Source of the DNA: Nemertoderma westbladi | Lineage: Eukaryota; Animalia; Xenacoelomorpha | DNA length: 52,741 nt | Assembly (NCBI GenBank): GCA_032718475.1 | Contig: JAUCBJ010005860.1 | Coordinates: 1-52,741, forward strand | Direction: 5' to 3' | In this document: piece after piece, positions 1 through 51,629 of the stretch | Layout of the letters: every line of letters starts with the position of its first letter | How positions within the stretch are numbered: position 1 is the stretch's first letter | Position numbers and translations under genes: made by a program | Notes under the pieces: generated by a model | What the model saw: the letters and a program-made list of their open reading frames with translations, nothing else | Databases searched by the model: none | What the model was told of the DNA's origin: nothing

Positions 1-27
1 ATGGTGATGATAAAATATCATTCTTAG

Positions 28-26947: not shown

Positions 26948-28134
26948 TATAATTCATTTTTCTAACTATAATAATTAAATTATTAATGTAATGTTATTTA
27001 TTCTATTAAAATTGCCTCCAATAGGGACATATTCAATTATTTAACAAAGTCGCACATTTATGGTTTGAGTTTGGTTTATTTCCAGGCCCTGGACAGACAG
27101 GCGGTTAATGGCAGACCACGGAAGGTTGAAAGAAAGCATCAATATTATCAATACTCCATTCCATAGACTATTGGGGATTTAACCAAATCAATAAGGCCCG
27201 TGCTCCACTGGCAACACATGAGTCGTATGTCAAGTCGTTTTCAGATTTTGTCTGAGTCCGTATGTCAAAAGTATAGCTCCCGTGCTCCACTGGTAAGTCA
27301 TTAGTCTTTTCTTTAAAAATATGAGATGCGTCTCACATTTAATGGATCACTGAACATTGAATTGCTTGCTGCTATCCAAAGTAACCAATCACAGGTCTCT
27401 TGCCAGAAAGAACCCATGGCATGGGTCGTATGTCAAAGATGAAACATGGGACATAATCGCTTTCGACCCATGCATCGGTCGTAACAATGACATACCGATA
27501 CCAGTGGAGCCGCTCCCATTGACACCAATGTGTTCCATAATTTATTATTTCGACTTTTTGACAGATATGACTTACCAGTGGCGCACCGCGCACGTGCCTA
27601 AACATGATAAATTAACAACAGCTACATTTTATTAGATTGATTGACTAATAATTGTATTCAGAAATTTATCGTAGTGAGAAGTTGTACTGTAGTAATGGTG
27701 GTGAATACTTGGCCGACAGTTACAGAGTAGCGGGATGTTTTAAGCACAACAATAAACCAGTAGTGCCATGAGCACTGGTTATAGTTAATAAAATGCAACA
27801 TGTTCATAATTTGAAAAATATCTACAAAAGTCATTTCACATCTAGGCGATTTGTTAGGTTAACTTTATCTTTGATCCCAGGCCCTTGTTGTTACTCTATC
27901 TTAATCTACAAGTTGGCGGGCCCCATTAGGCGTTAACAGTTTGAGGCAGTTGAATTACATCTAAAACATAAATAGTGGACCCCAACCTCATGAGTATGCG
28001 TGTCACCGTTAGTGGGGCCTAATTATCCAATGGCAAACATTAGTAGATAGGCCAGGTTATAGTCGTGGCCAGCACAACTAATCAACCGTGTCAGTGGCTA
28101 TGCAAGTCCCAATCACAGGGGTTGATCCGTAACC

Positions 28135-28399
28135 CAGACTCGCTGGCGCCAGGGCCCTCTCCTGCCACAATAGACCCATTCATAGCTACTCCACTTCACG
28201 AATTGAAACTCGTAATCTGTCATACAGGCAAAGCCTTTGGCTCAATTGGGCGCAAATGGCTTTAATAGCCATGAACAATCAACCGGTTGGTATAATTACC
28301 ATTGAATACGGGCAAACAAGCTTTCACACCTGGGGGACAATCTGGGTGTTGGTTAACTCTAAGAGTTCCATCATTGAATCGGCCAGACTCAGTGGCGCC
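28135..28399 (+). promoter_or_regulatory. Putative BMP-responsive enhancer module M1
   Basis: CAGAC-N5-GGCGCC at 28135-28150 and 28384-28399; TCACACCT at 28324; ACAATAGACCCATT at 28167. Confidence 0.7.
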
Positions 28400-29491
28400 A
28401 GTCGCCGCCTACTCAAATTATCAAATAAGGATCAATCACAACCACCAAGTAAGTTAGTCGTATCTCGAAAGGGGATCCACCAGTGACATTGTGAATGTCA
28501 TGCTTGTCTTATCATGGGATTCTTAACGTCTTTTATGATGTCTCCATAGGGGATCAAGATCATTGGTCCACCCGAGAAGACGTTATGTGGTGTATACCGT
28601 TACCGTTTGGAAAAACAAAGACTGGTAGTCTATATCTGTAATCTGCAGGCCTTGTCCCCGTGCCTTCCTTCTTGAAACCTTTTCTTGAACATTAGGATCG
28701 TCAGCAAATGTTTCATTGTTTGGTGAAAAAGGTGACTTCTTGGTATGACGCTTATCATAAATCCCCTTCTTAATTCATATTTTTCTATACCGTGTGTGTC
28801 TGTGTAATTAATATGTGCACAATTAACCCGACGTCCCCTCACCTGCATTTAGTAGTTCGCATTCGTATCCAGGAAAGAAACATACCCTACGTCGTAGCCA
28901 ATCGCTGCATTACAAATTGAACTAAAGCAGGGCGTGGCATTACTATGGGCTGGAATATCGGGAAGAATTATTCTAAATGTATAATTCCGCCGTTCAGTGC
29001 CTCAGTTGAATCGACATTAACGTTTAACAGATTTATGTATTCCGAGTTCGAAAAAAAATACATGCTGAAGATGCGGGGGCAGCTTTGCATCTCTTAATTG
29101 TGCAACAATAGACGAATCAGCAACTCTAGTTGTGGAGTTGAAATGCAAACATAACTTGTGCAGTCAAGACAACTTAGACAACTATTTGCACTCAGGGAGG
29201 GCATCAATAATAATTTGACATTGATTGAATATTCTGTTTTTAGTTTATTTTGTTCAATCGAATGTTCAGTTGAATGTTGTAAATGTAAGCCAGCATCTCA
29301 AATTTACTAAGTTAGGTATAAGCTGAGACCTCGCCATTCAGACGAGTGGACGAGTCGTAAAATTAATTCGATATTTTATTAATTAATATTGATCTATTAT
29401 TTGAAAACTATTATTGTTCGTATAATTATTTTTAAGCTATTTGTAGAAAGTTTTTTGATTAGATTTTTTAAAATTATATCTAATACTGATT

Positions 29492-30634
29492 ATGTGGTAC
29501 GATATCGGAGCTCTGTTGTTTAACCAACTCATTCGATGTCTCGATTCCTGCCGATATTGGCTATCATTCAAGAGGATTTCCTCTCAATGTTTCTCAGCGT
29601 TTGTGGGAGTTCCGGCAGCAATACTTATGGCTTCCTGCGGCATCATCCCATTAATTACCACAAATATTATATGCCACTTAATTATCGGTCGAACTTTCAT
29701 TAAATATGAATTCCGACACCAACGAACAGATTTTCTACTTTTCGTCGGGTTATTTACGTACATATGGGCCTTACTATTCTTTATATTTCACATTGCGCCG
29801 CTGGGTGGACTCAGTAACTTCGCCATGGTGTCGCAGACTTGTCTGTTTGCGCTGACGCTGATGTCTGTACTGGTAACTAAGGTGCGGAACCCGGGGGTCT
29901 TGCGAGAGTCGCTCGCCCCTATCGGAGGACCACATACAGCAGTCCCGGCCAGTCTATACTGGGGAACCAACGGACCCTACCTGGGAAGTTACTCCATGTT
30001 GGACCACCACCACCACTCCACTAGTACCAGCACCGCATTGACTCCGGTGACTCCCCGAGCCGTGCCGGTGCGTCGACCCGACTCCATGGCTTGGTGCGGC
30101 TGCTGCGCGATGTGGGTGCCGCCACGATCAGCTCACTGCCGCGTCTGCAACCACTGCGTGCGACGGCTGGACCACCACAGTGCGTGGTTGGACTGTTGCG
30201 TCGGAATAAACAATCAACGTTTCTTTCTACTCAGTTTGTTGATCTTCGTTGTTTCTACCTGGTGGCGCCTTGCAGTCTCTTTCCCTTTACTCTGTGAGCC
30301 CAGTTGTCTGGCCGCCACATACGAGCCACTGACTTGCGCCAGTCTAGCTATCTGCGCATTTACCGGCTTTACAAACTCCACATTTACATTGATTTTACTG
30401 AAGCAAATAGTTTTCGTCTCCCGGAACATGTTGTGCGCAGAACTTATTGGCCTATTGAAGCAGGCACGAGTCCCTATTTTGTACGGACGTCTAGCAACAC
30501 TCCGGGTTTACGGGGGTGCCGCTAGGAAATACTCGAAATCCTGGAATCGGGGAGTTCTACTAAACTGGGCCGAGTTTATGAGGCCGGAGAAATACGAGGA
30601 TGGATATATAAACAACGTATATGAATCCGTCTAG
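29492..30634 (+). CDS. zDHHC palmitoyltransferase-family protein (ZDHHC23-like), intronless, with DHHS instead of DHHC
   Basis: Cys-rich domain WCGCCAMWVPPRSAHCRVCNHCVRRLDHHSAWLDCCVGINNQRFF, NPG motif, several hydrophobic TM segments, and C-terminal WNRGVLLNW (PaCCT-like). The subfamily call is from recalled similarity. Confidence 0.88.
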   Translation: MWYDIGALLFNQLIRCLDSCRYWLSFKRISSQCFSAFVGVPAAILMASCGIIPLITTNIICHLIIGRTFIKYEFRHQRTDFLLFVGLFTYIWALLFFIFHIAPLGGLSNFAMVSQTCLFALTLMSVLVTKVRNPGVLRESLAPIGGPHTAVPASLYWGTNGPYLGSYSMLDHHHHSTSTSTALTPVTPRAVPVRRPDSMAWCGCCAMWVPPRSAHCRVCNHCVRRLDHHSAWLDCCVGINNQRFFLLSLLIFVVSTWWRLAVSFPLLCEPSCLAATYEPLTCASLAICAFTGFTNSTFTLILLKQIVFVSRNMLCAELIGLLKQARVPILYGRLATLRVYGGAARKYSKSWNRGVLLNWAEFMRPEKYEDGYINNVYESV

Positions 30635-30834
30635 AACTCAGTGATAATACAGTGCAATGAGTGGGCGTGCTTTCTATGTTACACATTGAATTTAATAGAT
30701 GCAGTGATATAGAAATAGTAGGAAATAATGTTTACAGTGGTAGAGATTGAAGATTCACGGTGGCACATTTTTTGTGAACGTTTTTACATTGTTGTATTTG
30801 CATTGTACAGTAGGTTGTAGCACATGTTACAATA

Positions 30835-32457
30835 CACGAAGTGGGGCCTTCGCGCTGCACGTGACTTAAATTTAATTTAAGTACTAATTCGAAAGTATTA
30901 CTGTATTAGCAAATTTTAAGCAGATTTCGCCTAATCACTTTTTACCTCTTTCATTTCTATTCAGACATTTCTGACTCTAGCGGTATAGTGAGAACTGAAG
31001 ATGGATTAGGGTCTCCAGCCCCACAAAGACACAGCCTATGGATGAATAGTACATACGTACATCGGCCAAGTTTCATCTTGAATAACGGATACCGAAATGA
31101 GAGACGGATCTCACTTTCAGAAATTTCGTCGTATAGCGGCAGACCGATTAAATCTCCCCCCCCCCCCACAAAGACGCAGCATGTGGTCCAGAATATATGG
31201 CAAGATTCAGCTTAAACTGATTAAAATCAATGAGACGGGAGGAATCTATTCACTCTCAGGCATAAAGTAGTCCTATAGCGGGTGACTGTTGAACTGATTT
31301 TCAACAAAACAAATTTTCAACTTGGCAGCTTTAAATTCGACAAAGTTATAAGCATGTCAATATCATAACGACGACAACGATTTCACTTTCAGACATTTGG
31401 CCCTCTAGCGGCAGACTGGAGAACTGCAGATGGATTCGCCTCCTTTGAAAGTCACAGCTAATGGTCTAATACATATCTGCCAAGTTTCAGCTTAAACGGA
31501 TTAAAAGCAAAGAAATGGGAGGGCATTTAATGTTTAGACATGTGGCCCTCTAGCGGGAGACCATTGCACTGATGGTGTCTGAAAGTCTCTCAAAAATCTC
31601 AACTTTAGCTCATATTGATACCTACAAATTTTCAACTTGGCAGCTTTAAATCCGACAAAGTTATTAGCATGTCAAAATCGTAACGACGACAACGATTTCA
31701 CTTTCAGACCTTTGGCCCTCTAGCGGCAGACTGGAGAACTGCAGATGGATTCGCCTCCTTTGAAAGTCACAGCTAATGGTCTAATACATATCTGCCAAGT
31801 TTCAGCTTAAACGGATTAAAAGCAAAGAAATGGGAGGGCATTTAATGTTTAGACATGTGGCCCTCTAGCGGGAGACCATTGCACTGATGGTGTCTGAAAG
31901 TCTCTCAAAAATCTCAACTTTAGCTCATATTGATACCTACAAATTTTCAACTTGGCAGCTTTAAATCCGACAAAGTTATTAGCATGTCAAAATCGTAACG
32001 ACGACAACGATTTCACTTTCAGACCTTTGGCCCTCTAGCGGCAGACTGGAGAACTGCAGATGGATTCGCCTCCTTTGAAAGTCACAGCTAATGGTCTAAT
32101 ACATATCTGCCAAGTTTCAGCTTAAACGGATTAAATGCAAAGAAATGGGAGGGCATTTAATGTTTAGACATGTGGCCCTCTAGCGGGAGACCATTGCACT
32201 GATGGTGTCTGAAAGTCTCTCAAAAATCTCAACTTTTGCTCATATTGATACCTACAAATTTTCAACTTGGCAGCTTTAAATCCGACAAAGTTGTTAGCAT
32301 GTCAAAATCGTAACGACGACGACGACGACAACGACGACGACGACGATGACGACGACAACGACGACGACGACGACGACGACAACTATTTGCATAAATTGAC
32401 CCACCCCCTAACAGTGTCAATTCGCTAAGGCTCCGCCAACTTCGTGGCTCGCCCCAC
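30835..32457 (+). mobile_element. HINE/DINE-1-like non-autonomous element with an internal 315-bp tandem array and (GAC)n microsatellite
   Basis: 5' CACGAAGTGGGGCCTTCGCG has an imperfect inverted copy at ~32423-32446, and the element ends GCTCGCCCCAC. (GAC)n at ~32314-32380. Confidence 0.6.
31311..32320. repeat. 315-bp tandem repeat, about 3.2 copies
   Basis: aaattttcaacttggcagc at 31311, 31626, 31941 and 32256. Confidence 0.95.
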
Positions 32458-34564
32458 ATAGCTACACTCTGACTACGGTGGCTTGGTAATATTATATTAA
32501 AGAGGTTAGTTAGTTAGAGTGTTACACAAAAATGTCTTGATTTGATGCCACGTTATTTTGTTATTGGTGGGGTGTACAGTACAACTTGTGTAAAACTTGT
32601 CTCTTGTGTTTACTTCTTTAGTTTAATCCAATGTAATGTTTAATTGTTTAATGTTATGTTTAATCCAAATGGTAGTCATTCCTGTGAATTTGATAATTTT
32701 CTCATTTCACTGAATGGTTACGCAGTGGTTGATATTGCAGTTAATTGTAACAGTCATAGAAGACCCTGCAGCAAAAACTATTGATATAGGAACTTGACTA
32801 AGTGTCTTCTCACCTCCATCAGTTATCTATATTGTTAACCCATTCTATTCGCCACAACTTGAATCATCACGTGAACAATCCACTACTTGACATGACATCT
32901 GAGTTAAATTCGTGGAAACTAGTGAAAAAAAGTATTACGTTCGTGTTTATTTTAGCGACAGAAAGTCGCTAAATTTTGGTGTTATAGAGTGCTGCCCTCT
33001 TGTATTAATTGTCCGGCCTGATGAACCGTGGACTTAGAAGGCATCGAGTTCGATGTCCGTTCCTTATCGTATTTTTTGGGAAAAGGAATATATTTTGATT
33101 TCATATTGTATTTGTTTGCTCTAATTGGAACTTTGAGGTAGATTCTCTCAACAACTCATTTTATATGTGGATGTGGGATCCGGATATCGTAACCTGCTCA
33201 TTTCCCTTACCGCCTAGCAAATACGCCGGTTTACACGGCAACTTTGCTCAGCCACCAGCAACTTCATTTTGAACTTGTTCGCAGTTAAACCTGGCAATTA
33301 TTTTCACAGCAACTTCGTGTTTACACGGGAAGTGCCACGACCGGCCTTGAGAAATGGGAACAACATTTACAATATATATTTTAGTAACTCATTAAATTAT
33401 TCAAGATCTTCTGGTCTCTAGTATTGCGTTTTAAACTCGTTGGTCGTCTAGGCAGAGAAGTAATAATGACAGATAGGAGGAATCCCTGAAATGGAAAGTT
33501 ATCGACTCTCCTAACCTCACTGCCGCTGCGCGCCCGGTCAATAAAATACCTCGAGCAAAGTGATATAAAACATTTTCAAGCCAAAGGCATTTCCAAATCG
33601 CCTTTCATCGTATCTGGAATATTTATTGAAACAAAATAAAACTGTGATGATTAATTAAACTCCTTAGAATTCCAGAACATAAAATGAAAGCCGACGAAAT
33701 TACCCCTATATTCAGGGATCATTAACGGATCGTTAACGGATCATTGTTGGGGTCCACGAAGATTCTGCGTCGAAGAAATAATGGTTTCATAAATGTCAAG
33801 GATAATTATAGAAGATTATAACTAGTGAATGATTAAAGACTGCTTCTTTTCTTCAATTAGTTGTAGGTATTTCTTTATTTTGGACGCGATGGGATCTAAA
33901 GTCACCCAATAGTGCGTGAATACTGCTCAGCTCAGCTCAACCAAAAATTCGAACGAATTACCTAATAGGTAGGCCTACTTCTTAACGATTAAATGGTAAT
34001 AAAAATCGCCACAACGTTAGAATAACGTCCCACTGTCACCTGTCCCATTCCCTTAACAAATGGATAATAATTTGTCTTTGAGAAGAGAAATTAATCACCG
34101 AAATGGGACTTTCAAATACATTTCTACTGTAGTAATACCGTAAATGCTTGAACTACAATTTCCCATTCGTAATGTTTTATACACTTAGCAAAGGGTATGG
34201 GGTATGGCGTATGGGTGGAAAGGATCCAAATCTGTCGTAATTTTAGGTTTGTGTATGATGTTGATTTTCTTTTAATTTTGGTCTGGCCCTGGAGACGGGC
34301 ATGCAGGGCCGGATTTAACCATTATATTTGAGCCTTAACGGGATGTGAACATTATAAACTTTTTAAAGAAGGATTCTTATCTTATTATCTTTTAAACACC
34401 CATTGTTATCTTTAGAAATTAAAATTTAAGAAGGTGCGAGGAAAATTATTATTTAAATATTGGCATTGACCATAAAACTGTCCCTAAAAAATTAACGGAG
34501 GTGTTCCTCCATATGGGTTTTCTTTAATTTGCATGTCCCCAATGTAGTTGAAAATGCATAGCAA

Positions 34565-34786
34565 GGTGTGTAAACGCTACGCCGACGGCCGACAGCCGAG
34601 AACCAAAGCCGACAACCCTTTAAAACGCGAATTAAAGCTAATTATACATTGGGGGAAAGGAACAGAGTTGAAGGTTATTCGAACCAAAACAATAAACGAG
34701 AGTGATGAATACAGGTTACAGCTCCATATTTGTCATTGTCGGCAGTGGTTGTCGACTGTCAGCTGTCGGCGTAGCGTTTACACCCC
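34565..34786. mobile_element. MITE with terminal inverted repeats and a 7-8 bp TSD
   Basis: GGTGTGTAAACGCTACGCCGAC...GTCGGCGTAGCGTTTACACCCC flanked by (C)ATAGCAA on both sides. A related copy lies in opposite orientation at ~50862-51052. Confidence 0.8.
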
Positions 34787-34986
34787 ATAGCAAGTGATAT
34801 ACCACCGAAATGAGAATCATCAAAAGTAATCAGAACTGTGAAAAAATTTTGCCGCAGCGGCTTACATGAGATTATAAAAATTTCACTAAAAGCACTCCAT
34901 CAGTATAATATTTTCCATTTATTTTCATTTTTGGATATTACATTTTTTGGAACCAGCATATAGCAAATACTGTATATCAACAAACC

Positions 34987-36420: not shown

Positions 36421-36679
36421 CAGACAGTCTGGCGCCGTGGCCTCTTCAACCACACAATAGACCCATTGATGGGCCCATGATCGGTGAGTGGGGGCCATCT
36501 CAAACGGCCTATACATATCAGGGGGGACATTGAGAGGGCTCAGTTAACTACCGTCCCTCGTCAATTAACAGCCTGTACAGGAGATGGGCCCAACAACACG
36601 TTTTCACACCATCAGGGCGAAGTAATGATTTCTTAGGCTCAACGAGCTGGCATTGTGTAGGCTCAGACAACCTGGCGCC
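36421..36679 (+). promoter_or_regulatory. Putative BMP-responsive enhancer module M2
   Basis: CAGAC-N5-GGCGCC at 36421-36436 and 36664-36679; TCACACC at 36604; ACAATAGACCCATTGA at 36454. Confidence 0.75.
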
Positions 36680-38900
36680 AGGGGACTTAACTGTGTTTGT
36701 CATAACCTCGAGGTTGGGCGCTTGTTAACGATATGTTATCAGCAAAGATCTCCGTGTGTACTAATACTGTTGTATGTTGTTGTATGCTTTGTTTGTGGCA
36801 CGATGTAGCTTGTGAGATTGGAGATTGAGCGACTCTATTTGTAATATGAATTTACAATAACAACCGTGTTTATGCGATTCAGCGATTCAAGTTTCAGGCA
36901 TATCCCTTTTGTTAATGATACAATACACATTCGCGGTACTATACGGGAATCATAACACGATACAATGAGGACATGCGCAATGAGATGTACGTAAACGAAC
37001 AACCTCGGTAACATACGACCACAGATCCGTATTCCTCAAGCACGACAGTCTTGCCAGCCACAACTGTAACAGATGAGACTGTTACATGCTGCCCGCACAT
37101 GATCATGTCCTATGGCTATGACAGGCAACTGTGATGAGATGAAGAATGGCCAGTAATTGACATTACTGATCGTTTGTCCAACTCCAATACATCGGTATTT
37201 GTGATCTTGACAATTCAGATGATTGAACTTGGAGGTGTCGCATCGTAGAGGTGCAGGGTGATGCCCGGCTCCTCTTAGTGTTGTACACAGTATACAGTAG
37301 CTGGCGGCGGAGGTACTCATAGTCCGATATGATTATATGTTAAACTAATCATCACAATTAAACTATAAACAATAAGTAATGGTTATTTATTATTTGATAT
37401 GCCACTCTATGTTATGACGTCATATACCACAAGAAACTTTCTGGATTATAATTAATTACTATATTGCTATATTTAAATCACTATTATATTACTAAATTAC
37501 TATAATTAAACCTGCTACAGCCTACAGACAGGAATACATGCGTAGGAAATATCTAGTTACTTACTGTAGTAGCAAAGCCCACTGATTTCTTTCCAGTATG
37601 TTTCCGGTTCCGGTTGCCATATAGGCCTACCTACCAGGTATCTGGTTTCGCGATTTCGGATTACATTTTCTTTAGGAGCCCATTCTCATCTTTCCCCTCT
37701 GCCCGCCGCCACTACTCCTCTCTTCCCACAGCCACTCCCCTCTGCCCACCGCCGGCCCACTCCTTACCCCTTAAGGACAAAGTATATTTTTCGATTTTAA
37801 TCACCCAAGAAGTAGAATGGAATCGATTTCATACATGCATATTGAATCGTAGGTAGATTCGTAGATATTAATTAGTTAATTTACAATTCCATTTTATTGG
37901 TTTGGTATATCAGTTTGCTTGGAGATACCCAGAGGGTGGTCATGGTCGCAAACCACCAGGCGCTGCGATTTCAGTAACCTAGCCGATGCTTTCTGCTTCT
38001 GCTGTATGCGGTTGCATGATGGGATGGATAGTTAGTTAGATAATGGAAGATATTTATTTTATTTGATATGGAATTATGTTCTGATTGCAGTTGCAGATTA
38101 TTTATTTAAAATGTATTATAATAATATGTTTAGTTAATATAGATGTAATATGTGGAACTATTTCCGAATGAGATGAAGTTATTTTATTCGAAACTTGGAA
38201 GATTACATTCTATATTGCGGAAATCTACCTATACCAGTTCTAAACGGAGTGATTTAAAATATTATAGACCTGCATAATCGGCTAACACCACTGAAGGATG
38301 TGTTTATTAAATATAAATATTCAACAACTTTACTTTAATTTTGCATACACAAACAAATACAAAAGTACTGCAGTGTGCACAGTACATACAACATCAGCTC
38401 GGTCATTGCAGTAATCAACGCCAATGTCACAAAGTCTGGCACTCTCCTAAATGACATCTGTTGCAGCCCACATACCCATCGAGCTATCGAGGAAGCCTAG
38501 TACGAATTTTGAAGTTTAAGTATACTGCGCATGCTGCACAGTCTATTCGGTAAACATCTATGTCAACGGTTGTTTCTGCTTTGTTATGAAGATAACATGT
38601 TCAATTGTGGTAATGGTGCACAATTAGTGACATCGGGTTTATTCGACCGGACCGACCAATTCTTTTCGGTCAACTTCCCCTCTCCCAGCATGACACTGGA
38701 ATTATAATTTTAATTAGCTTGGAAAAATCGTATATCTGCCTCAATCATTAACTGCTAATATTGAGATCCCCCTTAGGTGTTTCCCGTACAGTTCGGCGAA
38801 GGCGTTGCCTAACTAACTATACAATGGCGCCTTGGTGGCCCACACCTGAACGTGTCAACATTCTCAGATAATCTGTGAAACTAGGAATTCATTCAGTCTG

Positions 38901-38963
38901 ATTGGCCCCAATGCTTTGCGCGCTTTGCCATTGGTCGGTTGCTCCCGGCCCCAAACATATATA
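38901..38963 (+). promoter_or_regulatory. Core promoter of the homeobox gene (CCAAT boxes plus TATA-like element)
   Basis: ATTGG at 38901, CCAAT at 38908, ATTGG at 38930, and TATATA at 38958, ~190 bp upstream of the ATG. Confidence 0.5.
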
Positions 38964-39147
38964 GTTGGATGTAACTCATGGAATGTTTATCGTCATTTCC
39001 AACATCCAAGTTCCATTTGTTATTCCTTATTATTGTTATTTTCCCAAGTTTCTATAATCACTTTACCTCTGCCTTTATATTTTTTGTATTATTACTTTCC
39101 TTATCACTTGTCACTCACACGTCAGTGATATACGCATATCGAACACG

Positions 39148-40449
39148 ATGGTATTTAATTTCTCTGTTGAATTTCTTGCCGAGAGCTGCGCTCGTCCAGC
39201 CAGCGGGACCACGCAAGGGCGGGTCTATGGTCTAATAACACCGCCGATAAGTCCAGACAGTGGTAACGGGTCACCCGAAAGGAAACTCAACTCTCAATCC
39301 ACAGATAACTTCAACTTTTGTTTCCATGGTAAGTCCTAAAGATATTTAAATATATTTTGATTATACCGTTTATTTATTAATAGTCCTGCATAACTGGTCG
39401 TTTCGGCTTGTTACAAACTTTTGTAAGCTCATTATTTCAAATAATTCAAAAAGGTAACATTCCAGTGCCATTTTATGTTATTCTATTTATAACTATGATT
39501 TATTTATATTTCATGTCTATAATAATATCTGATTATCTATTGCAGAAAATATGGAATTCAACGCCTCCAAGTTGGAAGAGATTGGCGACTACGATGATGA
39601 ATCCGATGTCACAAACAAGAAGGGATGCAATAAGAAATCCCGAACTTCCTTTACAGCCTGTCAGGTCGTCAAACTGGAGCAGAAGTTCCAATCCCAGAAG
39701 TACCTCGCAGCCGTGGAGAGAGGCGAATTCGCTGAGAAACTCGGACTCTCAGACACTCAGGTAATTTAGTGTTCGGGGCGAAATGTTATCCAATTCTTTA
39801 CTTTGTAAAACAAGAGTATCCCGGTATTTAAATGATTGGCCATAATTGTATTAGTGTTTTGTATCATTCTTTCTACTATATTGGTTCACAGGTAAAAATT
39901 GGAACAACAATAAATATATTTTTAATATTGTTTCTCCCTCAGGTTAAAACTTGGTTCCAGAACCGGCGAATGAAACACAAGCGGGTACAACAAGACATCG
40001 ACAACGCTGCCATAGCAACCAACTACTACAACCGACTGGTCAGTGGTTGCCCCCCACCTCCGGTCTACCACCCTGTGGCCTACCCGGAGGTCATACCCGC
40101 TCATATGGTTCCCCCGCAATCGCTGCACTACGGCGGCTTCCCGGGTTTAGCGCCCTCTAGCGAGGCCTTCCCGAGTCTGGGCGCCCCCCTGACCCCGCAT
40201 CTACTCCCGCCCGCCACCCAGCTGCCCCCTATGGGTCCCACCCAGCTGCCCCCTATGGGTCCCACCCAGCTGCCCCCTATGGGTCCCACCCAGCTGCCCC
40301 CTATGGGTCCCCCCACCCAGCTGCCCCCTATGGGACCACCAGTGCAGTCGCCCACCCGACTCGGGACCGAGTTGTGGCTCAACGCCAACCGTCTCCCCTG
40401 GGACATGCCCTACCCAGCCCTGACGGCACCCACCGGGGTCTACATGTAA
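39148..40449 (+). CDS. vent: Vent/Vox-like NKL-class homeobox transcription factor, 3 exons (39148-39328, 39546-39760, 39943-40449), 300 aa
   Basis: GT-AG junctions join in frame (phases 1 and 0). Homeodomain KKSRTSFTACQVVKLEQKFQSQKYLAAVERGEFAEKLGLSDTQ|VKTWFQNRRMKHKR has Thr47. N-terminus MVFNFSVEFLAES resembles the eh1-type FSV(D/E)WLAQS motif of Vox/Vent proteins. Pro-rich C-terminus. Confidence 0.85.
40213..40335 (+). repeat. Coding 24-bp repeat (TQLPPMGP), about 5 copies
   Basis: CCCACCCAGCTGCCCCCTATGGGT tandem in exon 3. Confidence 0.92.
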
Positions 40450-42462
40450 ACTCTTTACTCGTCGTCTGTTCCATGCGCCAATGCATATCAGACACGTGAA
40501 CTCATCTTACTCAATGCGAATTCTATTAACCGAACTCATAATTTATTCGCATCGAATTTCTATGCAAATACAAAGCCAGTTTAATTAATTGGCTAAATAT
40601 ATATTTTTACAACTCATCATATATCAGTCCTCATTGTTCTATTCAGTGGTATACATTGTCTGTACCAATCTTTCCCACCAGTTGCCTAAATATATAGTAA
40701 TCTGTGTTATACCGTCGTCCCATTCATTTAAACTCGCGAAGTTTAGTTATTGAATTTTTATTTACCTTTTTGAATTGTGAATAATTGAAATGAAATCCAT
40801 TAATGTCAATCGGAATCCCTTAATTGGGCCGCTATTCAGTGAATATTTAAATGTAGACGTTATCATTTCGAATATTCAGTTTGTTTGGTTCAAATTACCG
40901 TGTGTCTGTGTCTGTTTTTTATTTCATTTAGAGGTGTCGGTACTTTTGAATTAATGCAATATTGTATTTATCGGTCGCTTTGTATATATAATTTTTGTAC
41001 ATAATATTATGCCGTGTCTATTCGTACTACGTAATTACTTTAATTAAAATATTAGAAATGAAATGAACCCATTTGTTTTCTCTGTATTTAACCGCGGGGC
41101 CCATAGACTGGCAAACTGACTAGACAAGTTAGTTTGGTGGGTTGGAGAAGTCTAATAAATAAAACTGGCTAAAGGGAGTGAAGTATAAATCTTAAAATAA
41201 GTTATAAAGCCCAGATGAAATAAATGTTTCCCCCTGAGGAAAGACGATTACGAAAACTATTGGACGAAAAGTCCGGGACGAAACATCCGTACCGAATTAT
41301 CATAAAAGAGTGTCTGCGGTGAGCTGTCCAACGGAGACAGGGGGGAAACTGGACGCAAATCCCATCCTGGCGAATTAATATCCCGCCTCACAATGTTAAA
41401 TTCTCAATTTAAGGAAAGGAGCAGGTTATAGTGGCACGTTATTTTAAACAAAACAATAAACTAAACACAATAGAACTGGTTACAGTTTTATCTTTGAGAG
41501 TCGGTTCAATCAAACCAGTTCAACAGGTTCAACCAAAATAACAACGGACTAACGGAATGTCATAAAGATGACTTGAACGCAGTTTCTCTTTTGAGTTTAG
41601 GTTATGCCTACAAAGTTTGTTTCGTTTTTACTATAAATTCTAGTAAAATTATATAATTGGAGTTTTGAATCCGCCGAAAGTCCCCAATAACTGAAGCAAA
41701 ATATAACTATTTACAAACCCTGGCGGATATCCATGTCGTATGAAGATTAACTATCACAGGTCGTTGTCATAAATGTTTTTATAACTGTTTCACGACTGCG
41801 ACTAAGTTTACATCGCAACTGGCTATTATTTACTAGTCGGATCGTGAAATATTTTGGAATAGGTCGATCGCCCCACAAACTTTGACAAGTTCTACACCTC
41901 GGCGCTTCTAAATCATTCGAGTTTTATGCGTAAGGAATCTTTGAGGACAGCTACAGGTACAGGATGGCTAACTATAACCAAAATAATAAACGAATTAATA
42001 GCAATGTAGGTTGCGAGAACCAACTGAAAGCTATAAAACAGTTGAATCGGAAGAAATTCAATGTCAAATATTTTAATTTATAAATTTCCAATATTTTGAT
42101 ATCATTCAACCCAAAAGAAAAAATCTGGGATCCAGCCATCCCCCACCCCGGGAAGTGTTTTACTTTAACAAATTCACTCTTAGGTTTCTTCTATGTTTCG
42201 TATTACATCCGTCATCCGGTGAAAATGAAAAAGGAAAAAGATAATATAAGATTGAAGAGACAACAGCATGAACTGTAATGAGGCAGAGTCAAACAAATCA
42301 CGGGGGGGGTGGGGGGTATTCTACAAAGTTTATATACCAAATACAATGACAGGCAGTCAACCCAACATTCCACGACATTCCCTGTAGGATTACGGAACCG
42401 AATTAACAACTGGTCTTTAGCCGGTAGTTATGTCGCCCAAGCCCCAAGCAAATAGAATCACT

Positions 42463-42649
42463 GGCGCCAGGATGTCTGGGTGCGATAAAAGGGCCTGTCT
42501 TCGCTAACTACCTTCCAATTGTGCTTTTGGTGTGAATGGTAAGCGCGGCGTTTAATGTGAGCTAACAGATTAGCAGTTCAATTTGCTGTGCGGTAGGCGT
42601 TTGAATGGCCCTATTACCGGTGGAGTGGGCCCTGGCGCCAACGAGTCTG
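42463..42649 (-). promoter_or_regulatory. Putative BMP-responsive enhancer module M3
   Basis: GGCGCC-N5-GTCTG at 42463-42478 and 42634-42649; GGTGTGA at 42529. Confidence 0.72.
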
Positions 42650-43132
42650 GCTTCTAGTGGCATTACCGATATACGAGAGAGTTCTGGGAGGAGGATTGAG
42701 GGCCCAAGTGATTGGTCTCCGCGTTTTCCATCCAGGTAACCGGTAATTTGGGCGCCGATGGTGACAAACCTCGCTTCGTTTCACAACCTAAGTGTCCCAT
42801 TTACCCGGAAACTATTTCACCCTCTTTGCTGCATCGCCTCCCTTTACGAAATGTCGTTAAAACTGTTTGACTGTACATTGATCTCATTGCGGACTGTGTG
42901 TAATGGAATAGGGACTAACGCTTTGTTAATTACAGTTGGGTGCTTTGGTCGAGTATTTTAGTTGTAATTAGGAATTAGCGGATTTGGTATTTGGACCATT
43001 TACTGTTTACTGACCCGCGTTGATACAATCTACATAAGAACTTAATAAGCAGAAATTAAAACAAAAATACAAATTTTTCATGAATATATATACATTTTCA
43101 ATCCCGACCTTTCCTGTCGCTGTCTGTTACCC

Positions 43133-44768
43133 TCCAAGTGCACGGGCCAGTTTTTACGGCCCGGGCCCGCTAAGTTTAATTTTTCTAAACATTACAGAAG
43201 GCATTCGACTCCATCCATAGAGGTAAAATGCTTGAAATCCTAAGAGCTTATGGAATACCAGAAGTAATTGTTGCTGGCATTGGATTGTTATATTGTGACA
43301 CAGAAGCGCAGGTACTCTCACCAGATGGTGAAACTGAGTTTTTCTCAATCCTGACTGGCGTACTGCAAGGTGACACATTAGCACCATTACTATTTGTAAT
43401 TGTGCTGGATTACGCAATGAGGACGGCCACAAAGGGTGAAGATCTGGGATTCACACTTCAAGAACGCAGAAGTAGTAGATATCCGGCAACTACAGTCACA
43501 GACACCGACTTTGCGGATGACATCGCCCTGCTATCTAATACGCTAGCAGATGCACAGCTTCTACTAAATAAAGTGGAGAGGGCTGCTAAGGAGGTTGGAT
43601 TGCATATAAATGCTACCAAGACCGAATTCATGACCTTTAATGGTGATGGAAACTCGACAGCCATTGATAATAATAAACTAAGGAAGGTCAATGACTTCCA
43701 GTACCTTGGATCATGGATAGAGAGTAGCAAAAAGGACATAGAAGTTAGGAAAGCAAAGGCTTGGGTAGCTCTATCAAAAATGGATACCATCTGGAAATCA
43801 GATCTCTCCAGGCACCTGAAGACTAAGTTCTTCCGAGCCACAGTGGAAAGTGTATTTTTATACGGGGGTGAGACCAGGACACTGACTAAATCACTTGAAC
43901 AACGAATTGATGGTTGCTACACAAGACTACTAAGGGCAGCCCTAAACATCAGCTGGAGACAACACATGACAAACGCCGAGCTTTATGGTACAATACCACC
44001 TGTATCAACCACCCTCCGTGAACGCAGACTAAGATTCAGTGGGCACTGCTGGCGAAGGAAAGACGAGGTCATACCAGATCTACTTCTCTGGCAACCACTC
44101 ATGGAAAGCGTAGTCGTGGACGACCTGCCATAACATATATAGATCAACTTGAAAGGGATACTGAACTTGGGAGAAACGAAATTGCGACAACTATGGAGAA
44201 TCGGGAAGCCTGGAAGGATCTCATTTCCACTGTCCGAGTTCGCTCGACCTAGTAGTAGTAGTAAACATTACAGCATAAAATAAAATTTTAACTTTCTGAT
44301 CAATCTACATACCTTGATTCCAAATACTACAGTATATCGGTTTTTCACCGTGAGCCAATGTTCTGGTTGTTTGTACATTAGAAAACTCGAAATATACTAT
44401 ACACACGTTGTGTAGGTCTGTCATGTTAAAACATTACCGGTATGTTTGTTGTCTACTTAGTAATATCAGAATATGTTTGTGAGTCTGTAATAAAGCAAAA
44501 GGTACGGTACATTACAAAGTCAAACAAAGAAACAAATAAATCATGAAAAAACCCTTGTTACAGGAAAATATAATATTGATATTTAATTTCATTTTATTTT
44601 GTAAAGAAAAAAAGTGTAACAAAAATTTTCATATTATTGTGTTTTGAAAACTGGATAATATAATTATTCAATAATAGCGGACTTTCTAATATTTAGAATG
44701 CGGCCCAAGCCCGGACCGGCCCGCGGACTGACCCGGCCCAAGCCCGGACCGGCCCGTGTCCATCTCTG
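43133..44768. mobile_element. Degenerate hAT-like non-autonomous element hosting the LINE insertion
   Basis: 8-bp direct repeat TGTTACCC at 43125-43132 and 44769-44776. The right end reads CAGAGATGGACACGGGCC on the minus strand; the left end retains only CACGGGCC; GGCCC-rich subterminal repeats. Confidence 0.5.
43198..44261 (+). mobile_element. 5'-truncated RTE-like non-LTR retrotransposon (reverse transcriptase C-terminal part)
   Basis: KAFDSIHR, GVLQGDTLAPLLF, FADDIALL and FQYLGS RT motifs. (TAG)n tail. 12-bp TSD TAAACATTACAG at 43186-43197 and 44262-44273. One frameshift near 44096. Confidence 0.93.
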
Positions 44769-44850
44769 TGTTACCCCCCCCCCCCATACACATCATTCTT
44801 TACTCCTTTCCCTCAATATTTGTAACAACATCGTTTTTAGTTTTGGTTAT

Positions 44851-47800
44851 TTGATATGAACCAGCCCACCGTTCACTTGGATATGAACCAACCCAACGTT
44901 CACTTGGATATGAACCAGCCCAACGTTCACTTTGAAATGAACCAGCCCGACGTTCACTTGGATATGAACCTGCCCAACGTTCACTTGGATATGAACCAGC
45001 CCAACGTTCACTTGGATATGAACCAACCCAAAGTTCGCTTGGATATGAACCAGCCCAACGTTCATTAAGATATGAACCAGCCCACCGTTCACTTGGATAT
45101 GATCCAGCCCACCGTTCACTTGGATATGAACCAGCCCACCGTTCACTTGGATATGAACCAGCCCAACGTTCACTTCGTAATGAACCAACCCAAAGTTCGC
45201 TTGGATATGAACCAGCCCACCGTTCACTTGGATATGAACCAGCCCACGGTTCACTTGGATATGAACCAGCCTACCGTTCACTAGGCTATAAACCAGCCCA
45301 ACGTTCACTTGGATATGTACCAGCCCACCGTTGACTTGGATATGAACCAGCCCAACGTTCACTTGGGAATGAACCAGCCCGACGTTGACTTGGATATGAA
45401 CCTGCCCAACGTTCACTTGGATATGAACCAGCCCAACGTTCACTTGGATATGAACCAGCCCACCGTTGACTTGGATATGAACCAGCCCAACGTTCACTTG
45501 GGAATGAACCAGCCCGACGTTGACTTGGATATGAACCTGCCCAACGTTCGCTTGGATATGAACCAGCCCAACGTTCATTTAGATATGAACCAGCCCACCG
45601 TTCACTTGGATATGAACCAGCCCACCGTTCACTTGGATATGAACCAGCCCACCGTTCACTTGGATATGAACCAGCCCACGGTTCACTTGGATATGAACCA
45701 GCCTACCGTTCACTAGGCTATAAACCAGCCCAACTTTCACTTGGATATGAACCAGCCCACCGTTGACTTGGATATGAACCAGCCCACCGTTCATTTGGAT
45801 ATGAACCAGCCCACCGTTCGCTTGGATATGAACCAGCCCTACGTTCACTTGGATATGAACCAGCCTACCGTTCACTAGGCTATAAACCAGCCCAACGTTC
45901 ACTTGGATATGAACCAGCCCACCGTTGACTTGGATATGAACCAGCCCAACGTTCACTTGGATATGAACCAGCCCACCGTTCGCTTGGATATGAACCAGCC
46001 CAACGTTCACTTGGATATGAACCAGCCTACCTTTCATTTGGATATGAACCAGCCCACCGTTCACTTGGATATGAACCAGCCCACCGTTCACTTGGATATG
46101 AACCAACCCAACATTCGCTTGGATATGAACCAGCCCAACGTTCACTTGGATATGAACCAGCCCACCGTTGACTTGGATATGAACCAGCCCAACGTTCACT
46201 TGGATATGAACCAGCCCACCGTTCATTTGGATATGAACCAGCCCACCGTTGACTTGGATATGAACCAGCCTACCGTTCACTAGGCTATAAACCAACCCAA
46301 CGTTCACTTGGATATGAACCAGCCCATCGTTGACTTGGATATGAACCAGCCCAACGTTCACTTGGATATGAAGCAGCCCACCGTTCACTTGGATATGAAC
46401 CAACCCAACATTCGCTTGGATATGAACCAGCCCAACATTCACTTGGATATGAACCAGCCCACCGTTGACTTGGATATGAACCAGCCCACCGTTGATTTGG
46501 ATATGAACCAGCCCACCGTTGACTTGGATATGAACCAGCCTACCTTTCATTTGGATATGAACCAGCCCACCGTTCACTTGGATATGAACTAGCCCACCGT
46601 TCACTTGGATATGAACCAACCCAACATTCGCTTGGATATGAACCAGCCCAACGTTCACTTGGATATGAACCAGCCCATCGTTGACTTGGATATGAACCAG
46701 CCCAACGTTCAGTTGGATATGAAGCAGCCCACCGTTCACTTGGATATGAACCAGCCCAACGTTCACTTGGATATGAACCAGCCTACCTTTCATTTGGATA
46801 TGAACCAGCCCACCGTTCACTTGGATATGAACTAGCCCACCGTTCACTTGGATATGAACCAACCCAACATTCGCTTGGATATGAACCAGCCCAACGTTCA
46901 CTTGGATATGAACCAGCCCACCGTTCACTTGGATATGAACCAGCCCAACGTTCATTTGGATATGAACCAGCCCAACGTTCATTTGGATATGAACCAGCCC
47001 ACCGTTCGCTTGGATATGAACCAGCCCACCGTTCACTTGGATATGAACCAGCCCACCGTTCACTTGGATATGAACCAGCCCAACGTTCTCTTGGATATGA
47101 ACCAGCCCAACGTTCACATGGATATGAACCAGCCCACCGTTCACTTGGATATGAACCAGCCCAACGTTCATTTGGATATGAACCAGCCCACCGTTTATTT
47201 GGATATGAACCAGCCCACCGTTCACTAGGCTATAAACCAGCCCAACGTTCACTCGGATATGAACCTTTGACTTGGATATGAACCAGCCCAACGTTCATTT
47301 TGATATAAACCAGCCCAACGTTCACTTTGATATGAACCAGCCCAACGTTCACTTGGATATGAACCAGCCCACCTTTGACTTGGATATGAACCAGCCCAAC
47401 GTTCATTTTGATATAAACCAGCCCAACGTTCACTTTGATATGAACCAGCCCAACGTTCACTTGGATATGAACCAGCCCAACGTTCACTTGGATATGAACC
47501 AGCCCAACGTTCACTTGGGTATGAACCAGCCCAACGTTCACTTGGATATGAACCAGCCCAGGGTTCACTAGGCTATGAACCAGCCCAACGTTCACTTGGA
47601 TATGAACCAGCCCACCGTTCACTTGGAAATGAACCAGCCCAACGTTCACTTGGATATGAACCAGCCCACGGTTCACAAGGCTATGAACCAGCCCTACGTT
47701 CACTTGGATATGAACCAGCCTACCGTTCACTAGGCTATGAACCAGCCCTACGTTCACTTGGATATGAGCCAGCCCACGGTTCACTAGGCTATGAACCAGC

Positions 47801-50590
47801 CCAACGTTCACTTTGATATGAACCAGCCCACGGTTCACTAGGCTATGAACCAGCCCAACGTTCACTTGGATATGAACCAGCCCAACGTTCACTTTGATAT
47901 GAACCAGCCCACGGTTCACTAGGCTATGAACCAGCCCAACGTTCACTTGGATATAAACCAGCCCACCGTTCACTTGGAAATGAACCAGCCCAACGTTCAC
48001 TTGGATATGAACCAGTCCACCGTTCACTTGGATATGAACCAGCCCAACGTTCACTTGGTAATGAACCAACCCAACGTTCCCTTTTATATGAACCAACCCA
48101 CCGTTCACTTGGATATGAACCAACCCACCGTTCACTTGGATATGAACCAACCCACCGTTCACTTGGATATGAACCAACCCACCGTTCACTTGGATATGAA
48201 CCAGCCCACCGTTTACTTGGATATGAACCAGCCTAACGTTCACTTGGTAATGAACCAACCCAACGTTCACTTGGATATGAACCAGCCCACGGTTCACAAG
48301 GCTATGAACCAGCCCTACGTTCACTTGGATATGAACCAGCCCAACGTTCACTTGGATATGAACCAGCCCACGGTTCACAAGGCTATGAACCAGCCCTACG
48401 TTCACTTGGATATGAACCAGCCTACCGTTCACTAGGCTATGAACCAGCCCTACGTTCACTTGGATATGAACCAGCCCACGGTTCACTAGGCTATGAACCA
48501 GCCCAACGTTCACTTTGATATGAACCAGCCCACGGTTCACTAGGCTATGAACCAGCCCAACGTTCACTCGGATATGAACCAGCCCAACGTTCACTTTGAT
48601 ATGAACCAGCCCACGGTTCACTAGGCTATGAACCAGCCCAACGTTCACTTGGATATAAACCAGCCCACGGTTCACTAGGCTATGAACCAGCCCAACGTTC
48701 ACTTTGATATGAACCAGCCCACGGTTCACTAGGCTATGAACCAGCCCAACGTTCACTTTGATATGAACCAACCCACCGTTCACTTGGATATGAACCAACC
48801 CACCGTTCACTTGGATATGAACCAACCCACCGTTCACTTGGATATGAACCAACCCACCGTTCACTTGGATATGAACCAGCCCACCGTTTACTTGGATATG
48901 AACCAGCCTAACGTTCACTTGGTAATGAACCAACCCAACGTTCACTTGGATATGAACCAACCACCGTTCACTTGGATATGAACCAACCACCGTTCACTTG
49001 GATATGAACCAACCCACCTTTTACTTGGATATGAACCAGCCCAACGTTCACTTTGATATGAACCAACCCACCGTTCACTTGGATATGAACCAACCCACCG
49101 TTCACTTGGATATGAACCAACCCACCGTTCACTTGGATATGAACCAACCCACCGTTCACTTGGATATGAACCAGCCCACCGTTTACTTGGATATGAACCA
49201 GCCTAACGTTCACTTGGTAATGAACCAACCCAACGTTCACTTGGATATGAACCAACCACCGTTCACTTGGATATGAACCAACCACCGTTCACTTGGATAT
49301 GAACCAACCCACCTTTTACTTGGATATTAACCAGCCCAACGTTCACTTGGTAATGAACCAACCCAACATTCACTTGGATATAAACCAGCCCACGGTTCAC
49401 TAGGCTATGAACCAGCCCAACGTTCACTTTGATATGAACCAGCCCACGGTTCACTAGGATATGAACCAGCCCAACGTTCACTTGGATATGAACCAGCCCA
49501 CCGTTCACTTGGAAATGAACCAGCCCAACGTTCACTTGGATATGAACCAGCCCACGGTTCCAAAGGCTATGAACCAGCCCTACGTTCACTTGGATATGAA
49601 CCAGCCTACCGTTCACTAGGCTATGAACCAGTCCTACGTTCACTTGGATATGAACCAGCCCACGGTTCACTAGGCTATGAACCAGCCCAACGTTCACTTT
49701 GATATGAACCAACCCACCGTTCACTTGGATATGAACCAACCCACCGTTCACTTGGATATGAACCAACCCACCGTTCACTTGGATATGAACCAACCCACCG
49801 TTCACTTGGATATGAACCAGCCCACCGTTTACTTGGATATGAACCAGCCTAACGTTCACTTGGTAATGAACCAACCCAACGTTCACTTGGATATGAACCA
49901 ACCACCGTTCACTTGGATATGAACCAACCACCGTTCACTTGGATATGAACCAACCCACCTTTTACTTGGATATGAACCAGCCCAACGTTCACTTGGTAAT
50001 GAACCAACCCAACATTCACTTGGAAAGGAACCAGCCCACCGTTGACTTGGATATGAACCAGCCTAACGTTCACTTGGATATGAACCAGCCCACCGTTCAC
50101 TTGGATATGAACCAGCCCACCGTTCATTTGGATATGAACCAACCCACCGTTCATTTGGATATGAACCAACCCACCGTTCACTTGGATTTGAACCAACCCA
50201 CCGTTCACTTGGATATGAACCAACCCAACGTTCACTTGGATATGAACCAGCCTACCGTTCACTTGGATATGAACCAACCCACCGATCACTTGGATATGAA
50301 TCAACCCACCGTTCACTTGGATATGAACCCACCCAACGTTCACTTGGATATGAACCAGCCTAGCGTTCACTTGAATATGAACCAGCCCAACGTTCACTTG
50401 GGAATGAACCAACCCAACATTCACTTGGATATGAACCAGCCCACCGTTCACTTGGATATGAACCAGCCCACCGTTCATTTGGATATGAACCAACCCACCG
50501 TTCACTTGGATATTAACCAACCCACCGTTCACTTGGATATGAACCAACCCACCGTTCACTTGGATATGAACCAGCCCACAGTTCATTGGA
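44851..50590. repeat. 27-bp minisatellite, ~5.7 kb, about 210 copies
   Basis: Unit TTGGATATGAACCAGCCCA(A/C)CGTTCAC with recurring variants. Confidence 0.98.
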
Positions 50591-50861
50591 TAGAAGTAAA
50601 CCAGACTGTCTGCTGTTATATTTCACTTTGCAGATTACCACATGTGAAGAATACATTACAGGTTTTCAATAAAACATGTATTCGAAAATGTATTAAAAGA
50701 AATTAAAAAATATAAAATTTTCAAAAATAAAATTCCAATAAAAACTCGACCGAAAAGTAAAAACATGGCATTCTTCACATGGGCGATAAGATGAGGCTTA
50801 CCGTGAACCCTTAGATATCAAAATGTTAATCGCTATAACCGTAGGATGTAGGGTAGATTCA

Positions 50862-51052
50862 GGATGTAAACGCTACGTCGACAACCGACAACCGACACGA
50901 CAACGAAAACTGTCAAACTGATGCATGTGCTCATGACTCTCGTTTACTGTTTTGGTTAGAATAACCTTCCACTGTTACCTGTTCCTTTCCCTCAATTTAT
51001 GATTAACATTAATTAGAGATAAATGGTTGTTGGTTGTCGACGTAGCGTTGAC
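50862..51052. mobile_element. Degenerate MITE, same family as 34565-34786
   Basis: TGTAAACGCTACGTCGAC...GTCGACGTAGCGTT inverted ends; interior matches the reverse complement of the 34.6-kb copy. Confidence 0.7.
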
Positions 51053-51364
51053 TGTTAAATAATTGAATATATCAAAATTGACTACCTTCGCATTTCCATT
51101 CCACGCAATCCTACAATTCCTCAATAATATACCTACCATTCTCCGTCTCCAGTGTTATTATATGGAGACCTTTCATTAATAATAATAGTCATTTTAAGTA
51201 CCAATAAAACATTTGACTATAGGGGGCCATAAATACGCACTAAACACACCCTCGATCATAAATAAAGGAACAATTAATCCACATAGTTTCGGGGTTACTA
51301 CTCATCTAACAATCGTATAACGAGCGGGTATTACTTACACCGAGCCCCGGTCGCAAAACCGGCT

Positions 51365-51629
51365 GGCGCCGCGAAGTCTGGCCTCCACAATGTGTCCACT
51401 TCCGCGCCTACTCAGGGATGAATTGTCCGTTTGGTGTGAAAACTTGTTTGCGTGTATTCAATAGCAATTAGGTGAACGGGGCAATTGTTCGAATGCATTA
51501 AGTAGGTAGCGGCCCATTGGCGTGCCCTTAACTTGGCCCCGTGGAGTAATGAGGTAACCATTTACCCCGTAGTGAGCGAATCAATAGGTGTATTGTCGGT
51601 GTGAAGGGTCTATGGCGCCCGACAGTCTG
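51365..51629 (-). promoter_or_regulatory. Putative BMP-responsive enhancer module M4
   Basis: GGCGCC-N5-GTCTG at 51365-51380 and 51614-51629; GGTGTGA at 51433 and ~51598. Confidence 0.72.

Follow-up and report, generated by a model that had tools for sequence, protein, structure and literature searches.

Four diverged copies of a module with paired BMP-response sites around a likely Vent homeobox gene of Nemertoderma westbladi, one of them likely also a promoter

Results

Four modules with paired BMP-response sites

The 52,741-base stretch of the Nemertoderma westbladi genome analyzed here (assembly GCA_032718475.1, contig JAUCBJ010005860.1, positions 1 to 52,741, forward strand; hereafter "the window") has a GC content of 41% and holds spliced genes, tandem repeats and, on both sides of an NK-like homeobox gene, four related modules (M1 to M4) that each begin and end with a bone morphogenetic protein (BMP) response element (BRE). 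The modules are a real and likely functional feature: sequence comparison indicates that they are very probably duplicated Smad-bound elements, and the homeobox gene, likely of the Vent family, is with good probability their target. On balance, we favor reading them as BMP-activated shadow enhancers of this gene, of which one (M1) was co-opted as the promoter of a neighboring DHHC palmitoyltransferase gene.

The bipartite site CAGAC-N5-GGCGCC (GGCGCC-N5-GTCTG on the other strand) has eight matches in the window and none in any of 100 dinucleotide shuffles, and all eight are module ends, two per module. Among the GGCGCC palindromes of the window, 9 of 14 have GTCT at a spacer of five, and no other spacer between 0 and 11 is seen with GTCT more than once. 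All eight sites thus combine GGCGCC with GTCTG at exactly the five-nucleotide spacer reported to be needed for a Smad1/Smad4/Schnurri response (PMC3439458), as expected for BREs of the Smad/Schnurri type. The ninth GGCGCC-N5-GTCT (30264-30278, +) ends in GTCTC and lies within the DHHC coding sequence without module context, and lone GGCGCC sequences without a GTCT partner occur at 38825-38839 (160 bp before the homeobox start) and at 42751-42756 (100 bp outside M3).

The homeobox gene sits between M2 and M3. M1 (28135-28399, +; 265 bp) lies 10.6-10.9 kb upstream of the homeobox start and comprises BREs at 28135-28150 and 28384-28399, a Sox-like pair at 28167-28182, a Fox core plus T-box at 28311-28331 and ACAAT at 28337-28341. 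M2 (36421-36679, +; 259 bp), 2.3-2.6 kb upstream, has BREs at 36421-36436 and 36664-36679, a Sox-like pair at 36454-36469 and a T-box at 36603-36610, the Fox core being absent. The other two modules are inverted and lie downstream of the homeobox start, M3 (42463-42649, -; 187 bp, with about 78 bp of the middle missing) at 3.5-3.7 kb and M4 (51365-51629, -; 265 bp, colinear with M1 nearly without gaps) at 12.4-12.6 kb. M3 carries BREs at 42634-42649 and 42463-42478, a Sox-like pair at 42602-42617 and a T-box at 42529-42536; M4 carries BREs at 51614-51629 and 51365-51380, T-boxes at 51598-51605 and 51433-51440, a Sox-like pair at 51581-51596 and a Fox core. The second BRE of every module faces the homeobox gene, an arrangement with a chance of 1/8 that we do not count as evidence. 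Between M3 and M4 lie a fragment of a non-LTR (long terminal repeat) reverse transcriptase (PF00078; 43189-44133, +) and a 27-bp satellite of 213 copies (44853-50592), without which M4 would stand about 6 kb from the start of the homeobox gene.

An initial annotation of the window had proposed a fixed motif grammar for the modules, whose Sox, Fox and homeodomain labels follow general usage. All of its observations were recovered exactly: Sox-like 16-mers stand 16, 17, 16 and 17 bp behind the first BRE of M1 to M4 (a degenerate pattern for them matches four times in the window, once per module), TTCACACC stands 60, 60, 57 and 59 bp ahead of the second BRE, and TCACACC-N6-ACAAT has three matches in the window, namely in M1, M3 and M4. 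The two long inverted matches were likewise reproduced, 28293-28330 against the reverse complement of 51433-51470 at 33 of 38 positions and 28134-28162 against that of 42622-42650 at 27 of 29. The grammar itself is only partly fixed: the BRE pairs, the Sox-like pair and the T-box are present in all four modules, but the Fox core is confined to M1 and M4, the T-box-N6-ACAAT arrangement to three of the four, and the lengths vary (265, 259, 187 and 265 bp, M3 being about 78 bp shorter). TCACACC occurs five times in the window, always inside a module; M4 has a second one, at its 5' end. Further Sox-type cores, overlooked initially, are common to M1, M2 and M4, near position 140 and some 11 bp ahead of the second BRE, and the modules hold 20 such cores in 848 bp compared with 3.6 expected, a number reached in 0 of 2000 shuffles. 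The terminal T of the T-box consensus (taken from 10.1101/156992) is present only in the T-box site of M1.

Common descent of the modules

With both BREs removed, the interiors of all six module pairs align above shuffles (z of 4.5, 7.0, 8.7, 2.4, 6.6 and 3.0; reached in 0-7 of 300 shuffles), and the 250-bp flanks show no homology in 12 comparisons (z from -0.9 to 1.8), so that homology ends sharply at the outer BREs. When the BRE, T-box, Sox, Fox and homeodomain cores are held fixed and the rest is permuted, every pair still beats the null (z 2.4-6.5; 0-14 of 1000). Leave-one-out profiles recover the omitted module at E-values of 1e-24, 9e-11, 3e-5 (5' part of M3 only) and 3e-21; profile matches elsewhere in the window are no better than E 0.24, hence no fifth copy is found there. 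M1 and M4 are equal in length, with motif offsets that agree within 1 bp, and kinship is otherwise a mosaic, M1 being nearest M3 at its 5' end and nearest M4 in the middle. Pairwise likeness is about 57-65%, and non-motif identity 0.37-0.51: the DNA between motifs has diverged, as initially described, yet remains more alike than chance under the motif-fixed null. The interior alignments and motif-fixed nulls bear out the proposed common ancestry with inversion, and the four modules likely descend from one duplicated cis-regulatory element, as judged from their sequences.

The initial annotation had seen no transposon ends, and our comparison agrees: apart from the GGCGCC palindromes the modules lack terminal inverted repeats, and they have no target-site duplication in common. 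Inverted matches at module ends span 6-10 nt, in windows that both hold a GGCGCC palindrome, and a 7-nt direct match in the two flanks of M1 is not common to the other modules. We considered whether TGGCGCC might be a tRNA primer-binding site of an LTR element, and rejected this, the bases that follow varying among the copies and the spacing to the upstream CAGAC being invariant. A metagenome scan for T-box plus BRE returned 23 loci, which we treat as chance; none of the 23 has a second BRE, ACAAT behind the T-box, or a homeodomain motif.

Conservation within and between samples

Columns under textbook motif cores are identical at 400 of 537 positions (0.74), against 1134 of 2264 (0.50) for all interior columns, and the cores exceed random words drawn from the modules (0.53 identical; p 0.0035). 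Identity is concentrated on the motif cores, as the initial annotation had anticipated, in a test that is partly circular. Motif-free runs tests across the six pairs gave p-values of 0.053, 0.013, <0.0005, 0.0005, 0.008 and 0.10.

Between-sample differences were taken from sequencing run X3 compared with the window (X3 being another sample, and run X2 the same sample), using ten wholly non-coding contigs (5382 bp, 45 differences), of which M1-M3 make up 711 bp; four X3 contigs overlapping coding sequence, and M4, were excluded. Only one difference falls inside M1-M3 (28247, off the shared motifs) where 5.9 are expected (p 0.013), or at most two, counting one unlisted difference near M2 (p 0.052). 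The proposal that selection retained the binding sites is thus borne out as far as fewer differences inside the modules go, at a borderline level. Finally, each DNA run has a single contig over M1 at 80% likeness, and the depth over M2 and M3 is that of one contig at 85%; no extra copies of M1-M3 were found at identities of at least 80-85% in three DNA runs, which agrees with the unlinked near-identical copies being absent, although copies as diverged as the four modules are mutually (~57-65%) would escape this comparison.

The homeobox gene

The NK-like homeobox gene (39148-40449, +; PF00046) encodes 300 amino acids in three coding exons (39148-39328, 39546-39760 and 39943-40449). A contig of run X4 lacks both introns, being joined at their GT..AG borders, and this run is therefore cDNA despite its listing as "DNA?". 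The proximal promoter (38880-38989, +) has CCAAT-type boxes at -88, -81 and -59 and TATATA at -31 relative to the cDNA 5' end at 38989.

A search with exon 2 found 572 proteins, and among the 150 of these that were listed, compared over the joined 60-residue homeodomain, the highest score was that of Ptychodera vent 1 (213, 39/60 identical). Saccoglossus vent 1 and 2 and mollusc proteins named vent1-like or pv.1 were further high matches (20 were looked up). In the tree analysis, joining the gene with five hemichordate rows, three of them named vent, gave the best likelihood (+0.94) of five groupings, none of which is rejected. The segment FSVEFLA at residue 5, which we take to be eh1-like and which may correspond to the N-terminal groucho-binding repression region of Vent proteins, resembles the FSIEFLA of an oyster cluster with one pv.1-named member, and segments of this type are also found in other NK-like proteins. 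Comparing the N terminus with those of 70 homeobox proteins gave no useful signal (best z 3.6), and one homologous-protein search gave no match for exon 2. We regard the gene as a likely member of the Vent family (on Ventx distribution, see PMC6050708).

Length polymorphism affects this gene at two places, a 9-bp insertion in the 5' untranslated region (UTR) at 39135 (run X4) and a 24-bp coding repeat of about five copies in exon 3 (40214-40334). Just behind the 3' UTR lies a very high-copy short repeat (41334-41501; summed depth >100,000 in DNA runs), with related pieces at 11074, 15266, 24928, 35141 and 52294.

A transcript start inside M1

The DHHC palmitoyltransferase open reading frame (ORF; 29492-30634, +) is intronless and encodes 380 amino acids (PF01529, E 1.5e-21); a homologous-protein search with the whole protein or with residues 185-315 returned no match. 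In its X4 contig, 39 unaligned letters precede 29463, the last 16 of which are identical to 28385-28400. The genome has GT at 28401, right after this 16-nt stretch, and AG just before 29463, which defines, from the joined cDNA end, a first exon of 16 nt (28385-28400, +) that starts within the CAGAC of the second BRE of M1, and a 1062-bp GT..AG intron in the 5' UTR (28401-29462, +). The spliced leader is 45 nt long and its first ATG is that of the ORF; run X3 and run X4 have a 4-bp insertion in the leader at 29474. The context of the start at 28385 fits what we take to be the initiator consensus. The letters ahead of the 16-nt stretch agree with the terminal part of the SMARTer template-switch label (PMC9245221), followed by an extra G where the genome has C; untemplated G tags of this kind are described as cap marks, 88% of them near gene starts (PMC9245221). 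An upstream exon was also sought for the first 14 of the unaligned letters and rejected, the best match in the window having three mismatches and the letters matching a cDNA adapter. The homeobox contig of X4 has 23 unaligned 5' letters, as many as precede the 16-nt stretch in the DHHC contig, known by number only.

The A of CAGAC at 28385, in the second BRE of M1, is the likely first base of the DHHC mRNA. A capped 5' end spliced to a downstream exon is what marks a Pol II promoter, and an end of this kind, with a cap-type tag, is found at M1 in one contig of one run. Because this cap-type cDNA end splices to the DHHC exon, M1 is likely also the DHHC promoter, and the initial view of the modules as enhancers only, which had overlooked this start, likely needs changing. 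M4 also has the CCAGACT context of the start. Behind the second BRE, a GT donor occupies the matching place in M3 and is absent in M2 and M4. X4 has no listed cover at M2 and M3, which has no bearing either way on transcription there.

Other features of the window

A divergent, intronless actin-like ORF (25820-26947, +; PF00022, E 5.9e-127) lies 1.2 kb upstream of M1; it and the DHHC ORF may be retrocopies, or the genome may be rich in intronless genes. Long low-complexity ORFs with internal repeats occupy 3-3890 (+), 4318-7446 (-) and 15394-17112 (+); their repeats are 336-bp, Pro/Cys/His-rich and 138-bp KRGP-type, and none has a convincing Pfam family. A large interrupted inverted repeat spans 8654-12252, with arms of >1 kb at 89-100% complementarity around a center of <900 bp. 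Tandem arrays are found at 17724-20593 (35-bp unit, 82 copies), at 20823-21941 (55-bp unit, 20 copies, with the donor-like word GTAAGT at the end of each unit) and at 31309-32325 (315-bp unit, 3.2 copies). An Rfam search of the window gave no matches.

Discussion

Proposed BMP-activated shadow enhancers, with one likely turned promoter

In the reading that we favor, a Smad1/5-Smad4 complex with Schnurri would bind each GGCGCC-N5-GTCTG, as established BMP biology leads one to expect, Sox and T-box factors between the paired BREs would supply tissue specificity (compare Xbra with Smad1 at Xenopus PV.1), and BMP signaling through the four modules would switch on the enclosed homeobox gene. Selection would have kept the sites while the flanks decayed, and the GT donor just behind the second BRE of M1 would have let enhancer transcription splice onto the neighboring ORF. 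As for the sign of the response, we lean by analogy towards BMP activating rather than silencing the homeobox gene, because the chordate vent promoters (amphioxus, Xenopus) are BMP/Smad-activated (PMC3033397) and the T-box factor Xbra cooperates with Smad1 at PV.1 (10.1101/156992), a cooperation with which the T-box about 60 bp from a BRE in the modules agrees. Because the pSMAD1/5 peaks of a sea anemone are enriched in BRE motifs too (PMC10849676), the meaning of the site is unlikely to depend on the species. Enhancer-to-promoter change is reported to accompany nearby splice donors (PMC6172195).

A number of observations weigh against this reading. The motif list was picked post hoc, after the sequences had been seen, which is what makes the core-identity test partly circular. 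In a realigned simulation of uniform decay, run for four of the six pairs, window variance was clearly blocky only for M1-M4 (2 of 300; the other three pairs gave 17, 23 and 38 of 300), and in none of the four did the best 20-bp window stand out, such that the non-uniform decay initially expected is clear in one of the four pairs. The polymorphism test draws on one other sample and M1-M3 only, and the flanks of M3 likewise show no X3 differences. With regard to the Vent assignment, an unnamed Priapulus protein (212, 42/60) and a protein from another clade (209, 40/60) score close behind Ptychodera vent 1, trees of 63 and 29 rows leave the gene unplaced, and approximately unbiased (AU) tests reject none of five groupings (p 0.13-0.55). 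The promoter claim for M1 comes from one contig of one run. Concerning the sign, all eight sites end in GTCTG and fit the Drosophila silencer consensus GNCGNC(N5)GNCTG, none of them fitting the activating element, and Ptychodera vent1 and vent2 are expressed apically and ventrally, with Smad1/5 active dorsally (PMC4571091).

Alternative explanations

The same duplicated elements might work with the opposite sign, Sox and T-box factors activating by default and Smad-Schnurri silencing where BMP is high, in the manner of Drosophila brinker, whose layout we presume to be multi-module, having found no paper on it; Smad4 over the M1 start would then also block DHHC transcription. We consider this unlikely, but a serious rival, given that flies use this site for silencing and that Ptychodera vent1/2 expression lies away from the dorsal domain of Smad1/5 activity. 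The fit of all eight sites to the silencer consensus speaks for it, as does the richness of the modules in Sox cores; the Drosophila-type activating element GGCGCCA(N4)GNCV, sought as GGCGYC-N5-GTCV, has no match in the window, the module sites all having GTCT, and in flies Schnurri is described as required for repression and dispensable for activation (PMC10847725). Against it, the same element with a 5-bp spacer activates vertebrate id3 and ventx2 (PMC3439458), and the vent genes of amphioxus and Xenopus are activated by BMP, as noted above.

The modules could instead be the promoters of a lost tandem array of vent paralogs, the DHHC ORF having captured M1, which kept its promoter activity. 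We regard this as improbable; as a statement about origin, it would not conflict with enhancer use today. Hemichordates have several vent-like proteins, whose loci share a contig or carry consecutive numbers, amphioxus has two adjacent vent copies, and the transcript from M1, the CCAGACT context in M4 and the GT donor in M3 would all suit former promoters. However, vent paralogs beside the modules left no trace within the window: tblastn finds no homeobox remnant near any module or elsewhere in it (best other matches E 9.3). Moreover, the homeobox promoter and 3' UTR lack similarity to the modules or their flanks, this promoter is of the TATA/CCAAT type, unlike the modules, and within the window no gene lies downstream of M3 or M4.

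Still less probable is an origin as remnants exapted from a transposon, or from another kind of repeat, in which Smad sites happened to be present. The sharp ends of homology at the outer sites, the two orientations and the repeat-rich region would fit such relics, and copies at ~57-65% likeness would have escaped the read comparison; the lack of terminal inverted repeats beyond the palindromes and of a shared target-site duplication argues against them, as do the clustering of all window copies around one gene and the single contig or single depth of M1-M3 in the DNA runs, compared with a summed depth of >100,000 for the repeat at 41334-41501. Convergent assembly of the same sites in unrelated DNA, to which the low non-motif identity and the weak M2-M3 and M3-M4 pairs (z 2.4-3.0) might point, is the least credible explanation and already largely refuted for M1, M2 and M4, given the equal length and matching offsets of M1 and M4, the N5 spacers and flanks common to M1 and M3 (27/29) and the motif-fixed nulls exceeded in all six pairs.

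Comparison with known systems

The bipartite GGCGCC-N5-GTCTG, in its Id2 form, is that of the BRE of Xenopus id3/ventx2 and mammalian Id2/Id3 (PMC3439458), here placed beside a likely vent gene. Xvent-2 is reported to depend on one Smad site in a short promoter region (PMC3033397), compared with eight here, paired in four homologous distal modules that stand on either side of the gene. At AmphiVent1, too, multiplied Smad sites make the BMP input to a vent gene robust; these are six scattered CAGAC within 1.2 kb of the start rather than duplicated modules with full bipartite sites, and AmphiVent2 has a Fox site, as do M1 and M4 (both as described in PMC3033397). At Xenopus PV.1 (ventx1), a T-box half-site near a Smad element resembles the arrangement seen here, but it is one proximal pair, and the account in 10.1101/156992 gives neither a 57-60 bp spacing across copies nor a Sox cluster. 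The brinker, msh and ind silencers of Drosophila share the consensus and spacer, with several elements per locus; they are repressive, and we found no report, in the available portions of PMC4161316 and PMC10847725, of them as homologous duplicated blocks.

In flies 18.3% and in mice 33.9% of shadow sets are reported to carry duplication signatures, with binding sites partly retained, and the fly matches have a median of 18 bp at 93% (PMC13345019), whereas the copies here are colinear over 190-265 bp at ~60% and number four. Of the features that define duplicated shadow enhancers, homology between elements at one locus is present and flank homology is not; the latter is also missing in 62.2% of fly duplicate pairs (PMC13345019), and so is not disqualifying. 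Mammalian elements that turned from enhancer to promoter (P/E elements) likewise show a new transcribed 5' exon and a nearby splice donor; those cases are cross-species comparisons (PMC6172195), as opposed to sister copies in one locus and a start inside a Smad4 site. A literature search, mostly of titles and abstract openings, turned up no description of a vent gene flanked by homologous modules with two BREs each. The BRE, duplicated shadow enhancers and the change from enhancer to promoter are each known; the combination, and its clarity, are unusual.

Significance

The four diverged copies provide a phylogenetic footprint within a single locus, in which BMP-response sites and their spacings can be read and then tested in short reporters. 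They bear on whether non-chordate vent genes are activated or silenced by BMP, and on how an enhancer turns into a promoter, for which the three sister copies, with no transcript start seen at M2 or M3, are built-in controls for M1, the copy that likely has one. It is tempting, if doubtful, to go further and see in them four ancient Vent enhancer copies that embody a code of Smad/Schnurri, T-box and Sox sites at fixed local spacing, with one copy serving as a BMP-gated promoter that uses a Smad4 site as its initiator. If this were true, the BMP-response code would predate the chordate vent promoters known from previous work, and an intronless palmitoyltransferase gene would have come under an axis-patterning signal.

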